From Escherichia phage 121Q, in the sequence record NC_025447.1: a stretch of DNA of 64,000 nucleotides. One strand, 5' to 3'. Under the pieces are notes generated by a model, which saw nothing but the letters and a program-made list of their open reading frames with translations, was not told the DNA's origin and searched no databases. Below are positions 8,847 to 54,363 of the stretch, in pieces. Position numbers and translations under genes: made by a program. The stretch's first letter is position 1; every line of letters begins with the position of its first letter.

Positions 8847-9069
8847 AGAACCAGAAACAATGAGTCCATATACGATGAAAGGTTTTGAATTCATGATGGA
8901 TTCGATTTTGAAGAATTCGTGTTTAGTACACAATCCTGAGCGTGCAACAGTGAGGGAATATCAGGACAATGCATTACAGCGTGTAATGAATATGTACAGG
9001 AATACGAGTCGCAAGCTTTGTGCGTTGAAAAGGATTGAAGAAATCAAGGTTTCTAGGCTGAATAAATAG
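8833..9069 (+). CDS. hypothetical small protein
   Basis: 78 aa ORF overlapping upstream gene end. Confidence 0.4.
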   Translation: MITFEEPETMSPYTMKGFEFMMDSILKNSCLVHNPERATVREYQDNALQRVMNMYRNTSRKLCALKRIEEIKVSRLNK

Positions 9070-9268
9070 AGACGTTTCATTTTGACAGGCCGCAGGGGGG
9101 GTCAAAAAAATTTCCGCTGAAAAACATGCTAAGGTATATGTTTAATATAAAGTTTTATATTGTGTTTTTCAGAGTACAGTTCATGTTTCCTGAAACAAAA
9201 AAAATACCCCGCCACCGAACGTGCTCTTTATATTGGAGTTTACCTTATTAATTATAGTAGAGATTAAG

Positions 9269-9646
9269 ATGGAAATAAAATATAATGAATTTTGTGCAAG
9301 GACATGGATGTACACTGGTGAGTTAGTTACGCACTCTAACTTATACAAGGGTGATTTAAACTACGCCAGGGACAAGATTTTAAAGTACTGGAATGCTGAC
9401 TTTTATTTGATGGATTTTAGTACTGGGTTTAGGGGTAAAGCAACCGAGATGTTGGACTATACAGTACTTGATGATGCTGCACTGTTTCAGGAGGCATTAG
9501 TATTTGATAAGAAGTACATCTGTACATTAGAAGAGATGATTGAATTACAGCGTAGAATTAAATGTATTCACAGGGAATGTATAGATATCTGGTGCAGTAC
9601 TGGTGAAGATAATTTTTGTAATCATTTCAATCTAGGGGAAGTGTGA
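9269..9646 (+). CDS. FQxS-core family protein
   Basis: ATG at 9269 (ORF-track start 9221 is GTG with no RBS); core DDAALFQEALVFDKKYICT nearly identical to 10235 and 10588 genes. Confidence 0.55.
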   Translation: MEIKYNEFCARTWMYTGELVTHSNLYKGDLNYARDKILKYWNADFYLMDFSTGFRGKATEMLDYTVLDDAALFQEALVFDKKYICTLEEMIELQRRIKCIHRECIDIWCSTGEDNFCNHFNLGEV

Positions 9647-10956: not shown

Positions 10957-11451
10957 ATGACATTACAGAGTTCATTGGAAAAAGCAAAGAAGATTCATGA
11001 GTACATGAATATGGTAAAAGAAGGTTCAGTTTACGGTGTTTTCAAAGACACAAGTACTCAATATTATGTGCCAGATAACCTCCTTTATAATGACTGCTCA
11101 GATACAGAAACGTGCGTACTGGATACAGAAACGTGTGTACTGGATACCGACCCTAATGATTATGAATGTTTCATTGATATGCATAATGAGTACATGGTCT
11201 ATATTAATGATGCAGATATTACCATATACAGTACTGACTGCGATTCCGATGACATTATAATTCCGAGTGAAGTACTAGAAGGTCAGTGGGATAGTGAAGA
11301 GTATTACTTCCAACAAAGTACTGTTTACGATGATGAAGTACTTGATGTTATTATAATTATGTGGTACTTTAAAAGTATTGGTTCTGGGAACTTCTATTTC
11401 GATTACAAATACGTAAAGAAAACTGTAGATAACGGTATTAACAGGTGTTGA
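10957..11451 (+). CDS. FQxS-core family protein (tandem subfamily copy 1)
   Basis: N-terminus MTLQSSLEKAKKIHEYM and C-terminus SEEYYFQQSTVYDDEVLDVIIIMWYFKS; contains in-frame 21-bp tandem repeat. Confidence 0.65.
   Translation: MTLQSSLEKAKKIHEYMNMVKEGSVYGVFKDTSTQYYVPDNLLYNDCSDTETCVLDTETCVLDTDPNDYECFIDMHNEYMVYINDADITIYSTDCDSDDIIIPSEVLEGQWDSEEYYFQQSTVYDDEVLDVIIIMWYFKSIGSGNFYFDYKYVKKTVDNGINRC
11101..11142 (+). repeat. 2 x 21-bp tandem direct repeat inside a CDS
   Basis: gatacagaaacgtg[c/t]gtactg twice, encoding DTETCVL DTETCVL. Confidence 0.7.
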
Positions 11452-11452
11452 A

Positions 11453-11923
11453 ATGAGTTTAGAAAGAGCATTAGAGATTGCGAAGTTAATTGATTTATGC
11501 AGCAAAGAAATTGTATCAAATTGTCTCAATGGATATCTATTCAAGGAAGGTAAATCATATTGTCGAATGATATACGATGACAGTAGTGAATATATCCATA
11601 TGTATGAAGAAAACTTAGATTCTTCTGAAACAACACTCAATGGGTGTGATGTTAATTTGGAAGATAATTACATGTACTTCTGTCGTGATGCTGATATTTT
11701 AATACAAGATTCTGACATTCTAACTGGTGGTGAAGAGAAACATCTTCCGTATTCAGTACTGGATAATAACTGGGGTAGTGAAGATTACTATTTCCAGCAG
11801 AGTACTATATATAATGAAGATATACTTGACAAACTTGTTATTTCTTGGTACTTTCATAACACGGATTATAGTAGCTTCTACATAGACTTGGATCTACTAA
11901 GAGTACTTAAAGAGGATATATGA
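11453..11923 (+). CDS. FQxS-core family protein (tandem subfamily copy 2)
   Basis: core SEDYYFQQSTIYNEDILDKLVISWYF. Confidence 0.65.
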   Translation: MSLERALEIAKLIDLCSKEIVSNCLNGYLFKEGKSYCRMIYDDSSEYIHMYEENLDSSETTLNGCDVNLEDNYMYFCRDADILIQDSDILTGGEEKHLPYSVLDNNWGSEDYYFQQSTIYNEDILDKLVISWYFHNTDYSSFYIDLDLLRVLKEDI

Positions 11924-12360
11924 GTTTAGAAAAAGCACTAGAACTAGCCAACAAAATACATCAGTACCATGATAAAATAAAAAGTGGGTTCTATGCTGAT
12001 AAAGTACATGCATATGGGAATGAATATTACCTCACTGGAGTAAAGAGATACTCTAATGATATTTTACTTATGGGTCATGATAAAGACAATAATATACAGT
12101 ACTCTTCATGTAGTCAATATACTAGTTTTATGGTATATATTCCTGGTACTAAGATTACTTTTGACACATCAAATACACCTGTTGACTTCGAGGTACTTGA
12201 TGGCCCGTGGGGTACTGAAGAGTATTACTTCCAACAGAGTCTCATTTTTAACCAAGAAATGCTTGATTCCTTGGTTGTGTTGTGGTACTTTAAGGAATTG
12301 AATTTTGAACCATTCTTTCTTGACTGGGGATCATGTGAGTATTTAATTTCAGGGGAATAA
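11920..12360 (+). CDS. FQxS-core family protein (tandem subfamily copy 3)
   Basis: core TEEYYFQQSLIFNQEMLDSLVVLWYF. Confidence 0.65.
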   Translation: MSLEKALELANKIHQYHDKIKSGFYADKVHAYGNEYYLTGVKRYSNDILLMGHDKDNNIQYSSCSQYTSFMVYIPGTKITFDTSNTPVDFEVLDGPWGTEEYYFQQSLIFNQEMLDSLVVLWYFKELNFEPFFLDWGSCEYLISGE

Positions 12361-12362
12361 TA

Positions 12363-12851
12363 ATGTCATTACAAAGTGCGTTGAAAGAAGCAAAGAAGAT
12401 TCATGAGTACATGATTATGGTACAGGAAGGTTCAGTACCAGGTGTATACAAAACATCAGATACGGAATTCTTCGTTAAGGATAGAGATGATTATGACGAT
12501 TCAGAGGTATGTGCAGAAACATTAGTACTGCACACTGATACTGGTGACAGTGATAACTGTGAATATCATATGTACAATCAGTACATTAGTTATTGCCGTA
12601 ATGAAGATATTACCATCTACAACACAGATAGTGATGCTGATGACACTATCATTCCTTATTCAGTTCTGGAAGGTCAGTGGGATAGTGAAGAATATTACTT
12701 CCAGAATAGTACTATCTACAATGAAGAAGAACTGGATGTTATTGTGATTATGTGGTATTTCAAAAGTATTGACTCCAGTAGTTTCTATTTTGATTATGAA
12801 TATGTAGAGAATACAGTAGGAGAAGGTAATGTCATTACAAAGTGCTCTTGA
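12363..12851 (+). CDS. FQxS-core family protein (tandem subfamily copy 4)
   Basis: N-terminus MSLQSALKEAKKIHEYM; core SEEYYFQNSTIYNEEELDVIVIMWYFKS. Confidence 0.65.
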   Translation: MSLQSALKEAKKIHEYMIMVQEGSVPGVYKTSDTEFFVKDRDDYDDSEVCAETLVLHTDTGDSDNCEYHMYNQYISYCRNEDITIYNTDSDADDTIIPYSVLEGQWDSEEYYFQNSTIYNEEELDVIVIMWYFKSIDSSSFYFDYEYVENTVGEGNVITKCS

Positions 12852-13281
12852 AAAAGCAAAAGAACTACATGGATACTTTGAAGATATAAAGGCCGGAAAG
12901 TTCAAAGAAGTGTACAAAGCCGAGAACGGTAACTACTACAAAGATGAAATGTATAATAACTCCGTTGGTGTAAGGGTTATTCTTGGGTTGAATTCCAATA
13001 GCCCAGTGTCGTATTCGGAATACAATAGAGATGCAGAATTCATTAGTTATGTTGAAAATGGTAGCATTCGTTTTATTAATAGACAAAAACCATTAACATT
13101 GAATTGTGAAGTACTGAATGGTCCGTGGAATAGTGAAGAGTATTACTTCCAAAACAGTACTGTATATGATGATGAAGTACTTGAAGCATTAGTTATTATG
13201 TGGTACTTCAAGAGTGTTAGCTGTCCTCGATTTTATTTGGATTTCGAAGATCTTCGTAAAGTACCAGAAGGTATAGAATGA
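12829..13281 (+). CDS. FQxS-core family protein (tandem subfamily copy 5)
   Basis: core SEEYYFQNSTVYDDEVLEALVIMWYFKS. Confidence 0.65.
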   Translation: MSLQSALEKAKELHGYFEDIKAGKFKEVYKAENGNYYKDEMYNNSVGVRVILGLNSNSPVSYSEYNRDAEFISYVENGSIRFINRQKPLTLNCEVLNGPWNSEEYYFQNSTVYDDEVLEALVIMWYFKSVSCPRFYLDFEDLRKVPEGIE

Positions 13282-30730: not shown

Positions 30731-31027
30731 ATGGATACTAAATTCAAAATTATTTTTAAAACTAAGCCGTATATTCCACATACAGCAGAACGTTTTATAC
30801 CACATGGTGCTGAGGAAATTATTCACCAAGATGGTACTAAGTTATACCTTGTTCCTTGTTCTTATGAACGTGCAGTAGAAATGTTACTAATGAATGCTAG
30901 ACTATGCAAAAACAAGTACATTAGTTACCTATACAATGAACATATTTTAGATTTCAATGATGAAAATATGTTCATTCTAGCAATTGAGGATTTTGATAAC
31001 TGGTACAATATTATTAAAATCCAATGA
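30731..31027 (+). CDS. hypothetical small protein
   Basis: 98 aa; GGAGGA RBS. Confidence 0.5.
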   Translation: MDTKFKIIFKTKPYIPHTAERFIPHGAEEIIHQDGTKLYLVPCSYERAVEMLLMNARLCKNKYISYLYNEHILDFNDENMFILAIEDFDNWYNIIKIQ

Positions 31028-31032
31028 AAATA

Positions 31033-31071
31033 ATGTGAACATATTAGATTCTTGTGATATAATGTTCACAT
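31033..31071 (+). promoter_or_regulatory. promoter with extended -10 inside a 10-bp inverted repeat
   Basis: ATGTGAACAT ... TGTGATATAAT ... ATGTTCACAT; perfect 10-bp arms flank the -10 element. Confidence 0.45.
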
Positions 31072-32744: not shown

Positions 32745-32774
32745 GACAAATGATAAGTTAATGATATAATATAA

Positions 32775-32807
32775 GGTGACAACATAATATGTTAGTCACC
32801 TTTTTTT
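32775..32807 (+). terminator. rho-independent terminator
   Basis: GGTGAC-aacataatatgtta-GTCACC hairpin followed by TTTTTTT. Confidence 0.65.
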
Positions 32808-32809
32808 AA

Positions 32810-33347
32810 TCCTGAAAGGTTCCCATAAGGAAATGATTAAAAGCCTAATCCACTCGAAAATGTAGAGGGTAGATGAGTAGTCCTTTCAGTACGAACAGCA
32901 GATGAAACCCGTTAGATGATGGCATAGTTTGAACCACTCACGGCAATGCGGCTGTATAAAGAACTCCAATAGGATAAAGAGAGTTCCTCGATAGACATAT
33001 AAGGATCGCACCTTACCAATTATCTAAGGGAGATTTCATAAGAAATATGCGGTCGGAATTATACAATATAGTTGCGTCCAAATTTTGTGAAATCAAATAC
33101 AAGTACTGGTCATATGGTATTTGTATTATGTGTCGGGATGTTTAAGACCGACGACCGTTGCTACAAGAACCGCGATAGAGAGAAACAGAGCAACCCGCTT
33201 TCGTCTCGTAAGAGAATTCGTGATATGAACTATGTGAAGGCCACCAGCGTCAAATTTTTTTGTTCTTTCCCCTGCGGGGGGATGAAATATGCTCAAGCAA
33301 ACCCCGTCAATATTAATTAAAAGAAAATAGTACTTGTAGAATTAGAC
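32810..33347. other. ORF-free, hairpin-rich island (candidate structured RNA or control region)
   Basis: No convincing ORF on either strand; locally higher GC by eye; complementary segments CTGAAAGG/CCTTTCAG, GAACTC/GAGTTC, GTCGG/CCGAC, TTGCT/AGCAA, CCCC-tgcg-GGGG. Confidence 0.35.
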
Positions 33348-33422
33348 ATGCGTAGCATGATAATTCTACTGATGTTGATGCAATCAACGTCACGTATATT
33401 CATTGATGTTTCCATAGGAATA

Positions 33423-33968
33423 ATGATGGCATTTATTAGAAAAGAAAAAACTGTTACTTATAAAACTTTGAATTTTGATGATTGCATTAATCAATCACAA
33501 GACGAAGATATCTTTACTGGATATGTGGTTATTAAAGAAAAAGGATGCATTTCTTATATAAAGGAATTACAAAATGGAATTGAAGTGACTTCAGTTAAAT
33601 TACTTCCTACTCAAAAACCAACAATATCAAAAGCCCAGTATGGTAATTATTTTGAAGAAAGATATAGTAATAATTCAATAAGTGTTAAGGCTCATATTAT
33701 TAAAGGAGAACTAGAAGGAGAATATAGAAAATACAACCCACAAGGAAAATGTGTTTGGGTTAAATACTTCAATTCAGGATATGATGTAACATCTGAAATT
33801 ATAGAGTTCTTGGGTTTAAAATGTACCCCTGAGACTATTCATGATTACAAGTTCAATACTGAAGAAGAGTTTAATCTGATGATGCGTTACGGTTCACATT
33901 TTAAATTTTTATATGAATATAACATTGACAGTAGTACTTTTGATAAGATAGTACACAACTGTCTCTAA
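33423..33968 (+). CDS. hypothetical protein
   Basis: ORF 33348-33968; first plausible ATG after RBS-like AGGAA at 33423; start uncertain. Confidence 0.4.
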   Translation: MMAFIRKEKTVTYKTLNFDDCINQSQDEDIFTGYVVIKEKGCISYIKELQNGIEVTSVKLLPTQKPTISKAQYGNYFEERYSNNSISVKAHIIKGELEGEYRKYNPQGKCVWVKYFNSGYDVTSEIIEFLGLKCTPETIHDYKFNTEEEFNLMMRYGSHFKFLYEYNIDSSTFDKIVHNCL

Positions 33969-53894: not shown

Positions 53895-54299
53895 ATGAAT
53901 ATACGTTCAGTACGAATATTTTCATTTGTTGATATGAATGAAAAACACTCTTATGTGTTTGAAACTGTCAATAAGTTAAATCCTCATACGGCAAAAATGA
54001 TTGAAACCATGAAGATCTTGAGTTTTCATATAGAAGTTTACTATCTTCATGACGATTCTGTTTTTGTATATGATGATGGATGGTATGACGGTGTGTTTTA
54101 TGATGACATTAGCACTACTGCTGATTACTACTTTCTAGTGAGTAACCCACTATTCAGTACTAAAACTTTGTTTGACATTACCGATACAAGCGTGTATGAT
54201 ACAAGTCATGTTGAGTTACTTAAGTTTGATCCAGTATTATTCAACAAAGAAACGGCGTATTGGATGACTGATTTCTTTTCAAATATTCCAGTAAAATAG
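53895..54299 (+). CDS. hypothetical protein
   Basis: ATG at 53895 after GGAG. Confidence 0.45.
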   Translation: MNIRSVRIFSFVDMNEKHSYVFETVNKLNPHTAKMIETMKILSFHIEVYYLHDDSVFVYDDGWYDGVFYDDISTTADYYFLVSNPLFSTKTLFDITDTSVYDTSHVELLKFDPVLFNKETAYWMTDFFSNIPVK

Positions 54300-54301
54300 T
54301 T

Positions 54302-54329
54302 TGGACATTTTAAATCTTAGTGATATAAT
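54302..54329 (+). promoter_or_regulatory. sigma70-like promoter with extended -10
   Basis: TTGGACA, 16 nt, gTGaTATAAT upstream of clpP RBS. Confidence 0.5.
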
Positions 54330-54363
54330 ACTCACTACAACGAAATAATAGAGGAAATTAACA

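Follow-up and report, generated by a model that had tools for sequence, protein, structure and literature searches.

Two GC-rich strings stand out in the 64,000-nucleotide stretch of the Escherichia phage 121Q genome analysed here (NC_025447.1; hereafter the window), and the question they raise is whether they are two copies of one element. The window matches the Asteriusvirus jumbo coliphages 121Q, PBECO4, G17, phAPEC6 and CRJP21, whose genomes are about 350 kb. Its G+C content is 32.7%, and its ORFs are nearly all small and on the + strand. A preliminary description had reported GGCCGCAGGGGGGGTCAAAAAAA at 9088-9110 (site 1) and, in the opposite orientation, TTTTTTTGTTCTTTCCCCTGCGGGGGG at 33255-33281 (site 2), and it had proposed a repeated protein-binding or processing site. 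Both strings are present with the positions and sequence given there. The long C and G runs are conspicuous, as had been remarked; the two sites hold the sole G or C runs of at least 6 nt in the window. The two sites also lie in its two largest ORF-free gaps, at about 32745-33427 (site 2) and at 9070-9269 (site 1), again in agreement with that account. With the Asteriusvirus relatives, the coding sequence near site 1 shares 86-98% identity, and the surroundings of site 2 share up to 100%.

The resemblance between the two sites is non-random. The shared core CCCCTGCGG occurs exactly twice in the window, at 9090-9098 (- strand) and 33269-33277 (+ strand), and 0.01 occurrences are expected from dinucleotide shuffles. 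The gapped pattern TTTTTTTG-N(1-12)-CCCCTGCGG matches sites 1 and 2 only, with 0.00 matches expected; it was defined post hoc, after the data had been seen, and its statistical strength is moderate once this is allowed for. When site 1 (- strand) was aligned locally with the site-2 region, the score was 29, compared with 16 ± 2.5 for shuffles (p ~3e-4 to 1e-3). Site 1 was also the top non-self match of the site-2 region in a scan of the whole window, where the next best score was 26. When the alignment was extended through the AT-rich flanks, it did not rise above the window background. In a complete relative of 352 kb, CCCCTGCGG occurs four times, namely at site 1 and in three copies of the RNA element described below.

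We consider it likely that site 2 is a stem-loop in a structured RNA gene, that site 1 belongs to a separate single-copy spacer, and that the two are not copies of one element. The proposal of a repeated site therefore stands in part: the motif is non-random, recurring and conserved, but it is not one short protein-binding site common to the two spacers. The features of the site-2 gap are as follows.

32762-32770, + strand: extended -10 promoter element TGATATAAT upstream of RNA copy A, with TATAAT ending at 32770 and TG before it (promoter scan)
32775-32807, + strand: terminator hairpin GGTGAC..GTCACC followed by U7, which ends the upstream gene and lies between the promoter and the RNA core
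32809-33310, + strand: predicted structured ncRNA gene, copy A, about 500 nt, ORF-free and unannotated
33157-33161 with 33190-33194, + strand: pseudoknot helix GUUGC/GCAAC (helix 11), which crosses helices 12 and 13
33248-33252, + strand: CGUCA box 1, invariant, immediately 5' of the U tract
33255-33262, + strand: U7-G tract, 3' of CGUCA box 1, which is the TTTTTTTG of the preliminary description and is not conserved in the family
33268-33281, + strand: stem-loop UCCCC-UGCG-GGGGG (helix 15) in the 3' domain of the RNA, which is the site-2 motif of the preliminary description
33305-33309, + strand: CGUCA box 2, whose predicted partner is the UGA of an invariant GAUGAG (32872-32877), closing the molecule

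The comparative data indicate that site 2 lies in a predicted stand-alone structured RNA gene on the + strand. A profile of the RNA family matched the window at 32809-33360 (nhmmer, E = 9e-146). The ends of the gene are approximate, the 5' end being the start of the HMM match and the 3' end the second CGUCA box. In phage G17, the hairpin at 32775-32807 is annotated as the transcriptional terminator of the upstream gene, and the next CDS begins at window position 33428, leaving about 680 bp without annotation. The same order of promoter, hairpin and RNA core is found in Munch-type copies. At the place of the extended -10 element, TGnTAnnAT (of the TGnTATAAT type) is present in 62 of 68 distinct regions upstream of RNA family members. 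The site-2 gap is 99-100% identical in the closest Asteriusvirus relatives and about 87% identical in the most distant Asteriusvirus records, and this stretch is better conserved than the coding sequence around site 1.

No conserved ORF was found in the RNA gene, and G17 has no CDS there. A coding gene at site 2 was considered and rejected; the only ORF of some length is an 82-aa TTG ORF at 33072-33320, and its frame is broken by indels in the paralogues. The short ORFs that have been called across the RNA gene in several GenBank records are probably spurious. The genes downstream of paralogous copies are unrelated, and only orthologous copies have a common neighbour; therefore, the element is not the leader of one gene family. 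A cis-regulatory leader or riboswitch was likewise rejected because the ORFs 3' of paralogous copies differ. The conserved fold, the promoter and the unrelated downstream genes together argue for a stand-alone RNA gene rather than a leader or a DNA repeat. As a consequence for annotation, the largest "intergenic gap" of the window would itself be a gene.

The fold was derived from a structure alignment of 27 non-redundant copies of the RNA family. The RNAalifold consensus contains 53 pairs, 31 of which show compensatory double changes. Three helices, one of them a pseudoknot, were added by eye, giving a structure of 68 pairs in 15 helices. In this structure, 94.3% of the cells are paired, compared with 37-44% in controls whose 3' partners were shifted by 1-3 columns. 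Compensatory changes on both sides are seen in 39 of the 68 pairs (6-17 in the controls), and the covariation score is 0.459 (≤0.10 in the controls). None of 500 shuffles equalled the observed pairing and covariation values. The pseudoknot is 100% paired in the 27 sequences and has compensatory changes in three of its five pairs, with GUUGU/ACAAC and GUCAU/AUGAC among its variants. Copy A of the window forms the covariation-supported core helices and the pseudoknot at the mapped coordinates. With 39 compensatory pairs, a pseudoknot and a conserved promoter, the comparative support is unusually strong.

The C run (33269-33272) and the G run (33276-33281) of the site-2 motif fall in helix 15, where 33268-33272 pair with 33277-33281 around a UGCG loop. 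This helix is 100% paired in the 27 sequences, and its sole changes are from C to U opposite an invariant G. Such changes give wobble U-G pairs in a + strand RNA, whereas they would give C-A mismatches on the - strand. The G side is invariant; therefore, the evidence for pairing rests on one-sided C/U changes. The site-2 hairpin has a folding energy of -12.9 kcal/mol, with z = -2.0 on the + strand and z = -0.9 on the - strand. The hairpin reaches 10 bp in copies B and C (UUCAUUCCCC/GGGGGGAUGAA), and these longer hairpins fold together with an adjacent hairpin at z = -5.2 and -5.6. Alternatively, the G run could serve for recognition or take part in a tertiary contact. Its invariance and the two CGUCA boxes point to a further contact, and the closing pairing with GAUGAG is one candidate for it. 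RNAalifold pairs 32874-32876 with 33307-33309 in this modelled helix. All three pairs are invariant; therefore, covariation gives no evidence either way.

The preliminary description had proposed a search of the complete genome for the motif and a look at orthologous intergenic sites of its relatives. Every copy of an element that occurs four to five times per genome contains the core, which is found in 61 distinct versions of the 3' module drawn from phages, metagenomes and bacteria. What is constant in these 61 modules is a pyrimidine strand, a loop of 2-5 nt, a G5-6 run, AUG(A/G)AA and a CGUCA box on each side. Copy A has all of these parts in the order CGUCA, pyrimidine strand, loop, G run, AUGAAA and CGUCA at 33248-33309. 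The G run is G6 in 46 modules and G5 in 11, and the loop of helix 15 is UGC, UGU, AGU or UUU across the family. Fifteen of the 61 modules have the exact CCCCTGCGG, and two have the full pattern of the preliminary description. Moreover, the T run of site 2 reads C followed by T6, not T7, in most of the close relatives. The shared "T7G...C4TGCGG" is thus specific to a few isolates and is not a feature of the family. A divergent subfamily from metagenomes has kept the 3' half and the G hairpin only, and CGAAG replaces CGUCA in both of its boxes.

In having a GC-rich stem-loop near a U tract where an RNA gene ends, site 2 resembles an intrinsic terminator. The resemblance is closer in the paralogous copies B and C, which have a complete terminator-like hairpin of canonical type with a U run at the position of the U tract of copy A, just upstream of the G hairpin. 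At site 2, however, the U tract lies 5' of the GC hairpin and AUGAAA lies 3' of it, and at site 1 it is an A run that follows on the + strand. An intrinsic terminator at either motif was rejected, as the terminator scan gave no report at 33255-33281 or at site 1. The terminator-like hairpin of copies B and C, if efficient, would leave the G hairpin outside the main transcript.

The RNA is repeated within phage genomes. Profile HMM searches found four full-length copies, all on the + strand, in the complete Asteriusvirus relative EC22.5-2, at about 90, 143, 223 and 333 kb of its 352 kb; the first corresponds to copy A of the window. By BLAST, there are four places per record in Asteriusvirus and five in other genera of jumbo phages. 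Sequences with 66-77% DNA identity occur in jumbo phages of Salmonella, Klebsiella, Erwinia and Serratia, and likewise in those of Yersinia, Cronobacter, Pectobacterium and Xanthomonas. A search of IMG/VR with a conserved 23-nt pattern returned 28 loci, all on contigs of jumbo-phage size or on fragments thereof. With a relaxed 28-nt pattern, 63 metagenome loci and eight bacterial assemblies were found, all with near-full-length matches.

Site 1 is of a different nature. Its features are as follows.

9070-9269, no strand assigned: single-copy intergenic block of about 190-200 nt with site 1 near its start
9082-9111, + strand: site 1, reading TTGACA, GGCCGCA, G7, TC, A7 and T, that is, a -35-like hexamer, a GC-rich spacer and an A run
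9207-9220, no strand assigned: second variable GC-rich tract ACCCCGCCACCG in the same block, with a partial inverted match to the first tract

The block is conserved in eight of nine Asteriusvirus relatives and is absent as a whole from UE-S1, which shows the block to be dispensable. The orthologues of site 1 were taken from GenBank phage records; a protein-anchored search found none in IMG/VR. The block has no second copy in the complete 352-kb relative, and a repeated intergenic element at site 1 was therefore rejected. Across nine close relatives, the G run of site 1 has 4, 5, 7, 8 or 9 residues; this tract changes its length by slippage. The hexamer reads TT(G/T/C)ACA, occurring as TTGACA, TTTACA and TTCACA, and CCGCAGG is changed to CCGCTGG in SP27, Turkey3 and CMSTMSU. 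Among the relatives, the second tract reads ACCCCGCC(A/C/G)CCG with indels.

The fold of site 1 is weak, at -9.6 kcal/mol (z = -1.3) on the + strand and -6.5 kcal/mol (z = -0.8) on the - strand. Its sole inner pairing is CC/GG, and a stable hairpin between a C run and a G run is absent. The changes of G to C or T in TTTTGAC are uncompensated in GTCAAAA; therefore, the only sizeable stem at site 1 is not conserved. On these grounds, an RNA hairpin at site 1 was rejected for either strand. An HMM of the 3' module, run with nhmmer --max, gave no hit at site 1 at E ≤100 in the window, and in a relative it gave E = 80. A covariance model of the 3' module was built from 14 copies without the inserted terminator hairpin, and the window was searched with the filters off. 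It recovered copy A at 33237-33314 (76.4 bits, E = 2.7e-14). At E ≤10, it reported 39 places in the window, copy A and 38 others, and none at 9050-9150. The view of site 1 as a second copy of the site-2 feature thus fails, since site 1 has neither an HMM or covariance-model match nor a hairpin, and its G run is hypervariable. Its resemblance to site 2, in the 9-mer and the T run, is treated as a coincidence, or at most as an old degraded fragment.

Several other relationships between the two sites were weighed against this reading. If both were copies of a single short recognition site in DNA or RNA, bound by a protein or used in processing, and set in opposite orientations in two spacers, this would account for the exact 9-mer and T7G that they alone have in the window (0.01 and 0.00 expected). 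It would also agree with the rank of site 1 as the best non-self alignment to the site-2 region, at a pairwise p of ~3e-4 to 1e-3, and with the restriction of CCCCTGCGG in the 352-kb relative to four places, site 1 and three RNA copies. However, the shared features (T7 and the loop UGC) are not the conserved ones, as shown by the two of 61 modules that fit the pattern, and site 1 lacks, or has in variable form, G6, the hairpin, the AUGAAA that immediately follows the G run in the family, and the CGUCA box. Both the HMM and the covariance model miss site 1, and the window-wide score is just 3 points above the background maximum; we therefore give a common recognition site little chance. Shared descent with no remaining function, site 1 being the decayed and inverted 3'-end fragment of a lost copy of the RNA gene, is unlikely but somewhat more in keeping with the collinear order of CAGCG, AAATTTTTTTG, CCCCTGCGG, ATGAAA and CGTC in site 1 (- strand) and copy A. 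The four BLAST places per Asteriusvirus record, against five in other genera, would also fit the loss of a copy. Against it, the extended alignment stays at the window background (37 versus 33.5 and 44.5 versus 42), no other part of the RNA is detectable beside site 1, and the good conservation of the block in relatives would not be expected of junk. In GAP32, moreover, the 35 kb upstream of copy A holds no extra copy, although the synteny of site 1 is not established there. An antisense relationship was also considered, in which the + strand mRNA across site 1 would pair with the 3' tail of copy A over about 23-28 bp in blocks, so that the RNA would regulate this mRNA or be titrated by it. 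The inverted orientation and the location of both loci in + strand units make the two RNAs complementary, with the blocks CCGCAGGGG(GGG), CAAAAAAAUUU and CGCUG. However, copy A is invariant in relatives in which site 1 changes, by CCGCAGG to CCGCTGG and in its variable G run, which argues against both gene conversion and an antisense relationship. UE-S1 has copy A while lacking the whole site-1 block, and the RNA in other genera has different tails. The antisense-target model was rejected for the absence of co-variation between site 1 and copy A, and we regard such pairing as very improbable.

Two further proposals concern what each locus does by itself. Site 1 might be a weak sigma-70-type promoter for the downstream + strand genes, in which slippage of the poly-G tract would alter the spacer length and the strength. 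It has a perfect TTGACA, an 18-bp spacer and AAAAAT (10/12 matches in the promoter scan), its hexamer varies at the third base only, and the G run gives spacers of about 15-20. It also stands where a 200-bp gap begins, immediately after a stop codon, and all genes are on the + strand. In Neisseria, poly-G and poly-C tracts in the promoter spacers of porA and opc are an established device of phase variation, and site 1 is like these promoters in having a poly-G of 4-9 between a -35-like hexamer and an A/T-rich -10-like stretch. It differs from them in its poor -10 and in belonging to a virulent phage genome instead of a bacterial contingency locus, and it is a candidate promoter. GAP32 likewise has promoters with TTGACA followed by a C5 run, an A run and a -10; the GAP32-type promoter stem-loops (G5-TTGACA-C5) were rejected as a model for site 1, being absent from Asteriusvirus. 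On the other hand, the -10 is merely AAAAAT, the strong TGnTATAAT usual in the clade is absent at site 1, the region has 9 promoter-like hits compared with 8.5 in shuffles, and differences in homopolymer length between records can be sequencing errors. A weak promoter is the best positive reading of site 1, yet a rather unlikely one; its evidence is thin, and we place it well below a spacer with no specific function shown. For the 500-nt element, the competing proposal is a DNA-level replication origin, whose transcript would serve as an R-loop primer and whose G and C runs and AT-rich flank would aid hybrid formation or unwinding. Transcript-primed origins are established in T4 (oriF and oriG) and in ColE1 (RNA II). 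The four dispersed copies on the same strand in EC22.5-2, the five BLAST places in other genera, the promoter and the AT-rich sequence 3' of the hairpin in each copy, and the copy in small integrative islands all suit an origin. However, compensatory covariation is dense over 15 helices, including a pseudoknot, which points to a free RNA under selection for its fold, and neither iterons nor replication genes are consistently adjacent. An origin transcript is therefore kept as a minority alternative of low probability.

We return to the reading of site 2 as part of a stand-alone RNA gene. Transcription of the RNA would run along the + strand from an extended -10 promoter of its own, of the sigma-70 type, and the host RNA polymerase would probably make it early and in quantity from four promoters. 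The C run and the G run of site 2 would pair as the strands of a short, GC-rich stem-loop within the 3' domain, and the T run before them would be a U tract of the RNA. In an abundant RNA, the hairpin may have a structural role, stabilise the 3' end or serve in processing. The 3' end is probably protected or defined by it; the paralogues, too, have a terminator-type hairpin at its position. A putative role of helix 15 in RNA processing or stability is thus possible, judged from sequence conservation and pairing.

Searches for known families gave no identity for this RNA. Rfam 15 covariance models were run over the element in the window, five phage loci, eight bacterial loci and six metagenome loci, and none matched at the gathering score or at E <=1-5. 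The families without a match include GOLLD, ROOL, RNase P, tmRNA, and group I and group II introns. ARAGORN found no tRNA or tmRNA in the element. Literature searches found no account of the RNA in papers on RaK2-like phages, phAPEC6, fEgEco12, CBB, PA5oct or GOLLD and ROOL. It is apparently a large structured RNA family that is unannotated and undescribed.

GOLLD and ROOL are large ornate RNAs of phages and prophages, which are in Rfam and have cryo-EM structures (PMC12286853). The present RNA is like them in its length of several hundred nucleotides, its many helices and its pseudoknots. As they are, it is carried by phages and other mobile elements, and it would likewise be transcribed as a stand-alone unit, with no known biochemical function. 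It differs from them in that no covariance model matches it, in its hosts, which are Enterobacterales and their jumbo myoviruses, and in its 4-5 copies per phage genome. Adjacency to tRNA genes, as in ROOL and GOLLD, was rejected for this RNA; the tRNA cluster lies about 12 kb from the nearest copy.

In PA5oct, a jumbo phage related to RaK2, RNA-seq has defined the ORF-free RNAs ncRNA001-004, which are 236-619 nt long and on the + strand (PMC7318152). Two of them are very abundant, at about 5% of the phage reads (PMC7318152). Copy A is likewise an ORF-free region on the + strand of a RaK2-related jumbo phage. Its structure is conserved, whereas no conserved structure has been reported for the PA5oct RNAs (PMC7318152). 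Homology to ncRNA001 and ncRNA002 was rejected because nhmmer found no similarity.

We favour, with modest confidence, the view that these sequences form an undescribed class of pseudoknotted RNA of about 480-600 nt with its own promoter, present in 4-5 copies per RaK2-like genome and in one copy in integrase-linked islands of Enterobacterales, which may be phage-interacting satellites or defence islands. The RNA would be a major and abundant player in infection, such as a scaffold, a decoy or a ribozyme, with a standing like that of GOLLD and ROOL. Large, highly structured ncRNAs are rare, and each so far has opened new biology, as with ribozymes, riboswitches and the GOLLD, ROOL and OLE assemblies. 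The carriers 121Q, PBECO4, phAPEC6, G17, GAP32, CBB and Munch grow in ordinary laboratory hosts; therefore, the RNA is directly testable.

The RNA is common to the RaK2-like clade of jumbo myoviruses and to small integrase-linked islands of Enterobacterales. It thereby links virulent jumbo phages that infect nine genera with small integrative islands carried by the chromosomes of their hosts. This suggests either exchange between the two or islands by which these phages are exploited or sensed. The bacterial loci are from Serratia, Enterobacter, Silvania, Buttiauxella and unnamed Enterobacteriaceae. At most of them, the RNA lies directly 3' of a tyrosine integrase or a large serine recombinase. 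Four loci have a convergent CI-like HTH and S24 repressor, and one further locus has a repressor and no adjacent integrase. On the Serratia fonticola chromosome, two ParB-like genes lie between the recombinase and the RNA, and there is no repressor. Among 5,426 complete E. coli genomes, two have a blastn match, which is partial and spans 74% of the query. In E. coli EEC_W5, the match belongs to an island of about 10 kb next to ffs, and the RefSeq record has no annotation at the RNA.

In the window, the RNA gene (copy A, + strand) is accompanied on its two sides by the following elements:

32762-32807, extended -10 promoter for the RNA, TGATATAAT, together with the downstream hairpin that terminates the preceding gene
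33336-33393, two extra hairpins in the stretch that separates the RNA from the next gene

The promoter is followed by the terminator of the preceding gene; therefore, a transcript made from this promoter is predicted to start with a terminator-like hairpin and U7. The same order of promoter and terminator hairpin was also observed in the Munch-type copies of Salmonella phages. At the 3' side, the first hairpin is formed by GUAGAAUUA and UAAUUCUAC, with CAUGC/GCAUG inside, and the second is GUUGAU-GCA-AUCAAC. The pairing of both hairpins survives substitutions in the related phages EcMJ, Turkey3, and UE-S1. They may be part of the 3' tail of the RNA or of the leader of the next gene.

Five to six short hypothetical proteins are annotated over the RNA gene in several GenBank records, and the window itself contains an 82-aa TTG ORF at 33072-33320. 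These protein calls over a non-coding RNA are probably spurious. Separately, ORFs that follow some RNA copies on jumbo-phage contigs from IMG/VR (L034, L035, and L043) start with ...AIGALVGLAVGDALG..., which we take to resemble a putative ADP-ribosylglycohydrolase signature.

In phage UE-S1 (L054, copy A, and L049), the RNA has an internal tandem duplication of approximately 55 nt, involving the segment CAGAAGAAACCCGU...GCGGCU, and the whole 190-nt block that contains site 1 (the GC-rich motif at window 9082-9111) is missing. The record of phage CMSTMSU (L048 and L052) carries the flag UNVERIFIED, and deletions affect its two homopolymer-rich motifs, namely the G run of site 1 and CCCCTGCGG of copy A. 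The deletions were probably caused by an assembly or homopolymer error; therefore, the lengths of G runs taken from single records need caution.

A divergent subfamily of the RNA was found on metagenome contigs (L080, L086, L104-L107, L114, and L125). Its similarity to the main family is confined to the 3' half plus the G hairpin, and the 5' half is different and more GC-rich. CGUCA is replaced by CGAAG in both boxes flanking the hairpin, and this joint change in sequence suggests that the two boxes have one partner in common.

Single RNA copies are also present in integrated elements of bacterial chromosomes (L056-L063, including L061:3692-4242, and L127:9001-9377), where an integrase or large serine recombinase gene is followed by the RNA and a convergent gene for a CI-like S24 repressor. 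The neighborhood of the RNA in Serratia fonticola includes two ParB-like genes as well as a duplicated rof. In E. coli EEC_W5, the RNA is located within an island of approximately 10 kb at ffs, which contains DUF4326, DUF488, and dual-OB genes.

Other promoters and repeats were observed in these phages. In EC22.5-2 (L002:35140-50180, upstream of the window-equivalent region), a promoter-plus-leader motif, GTATAATGT-TTTACATAGAGnGGGGGAAATGGTTCTCCC, occurs in seven copies; its G5 run is part of a hairpin in the 5' leader, directly after a -10 element. Phage GAP32 (L128:5278-23600) has promoter stem-loops, GGGGG-TTGACA-N4-CCCCC-G-AAAAATGCAATAAT, in which the loop of the G5/C5 stem holds the -35 hexamer; stem-loops of this type were not found in Asteriusvirus. 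Within the window, an intergenic promoter cassette, ...TG(A/G)ACAT(A/T)TTA(G/A)AT(T)CTT(G/A)GTGATATAAT..TCAC, is present at 31016-31069 and 54282-54335. Numerous small paralogous genes are arranged in tandem at 900-25600 (e.g., 11267-13248) as repeat families D1-D12, and their common conserved block translates to approximately EEYFQxSTVY.
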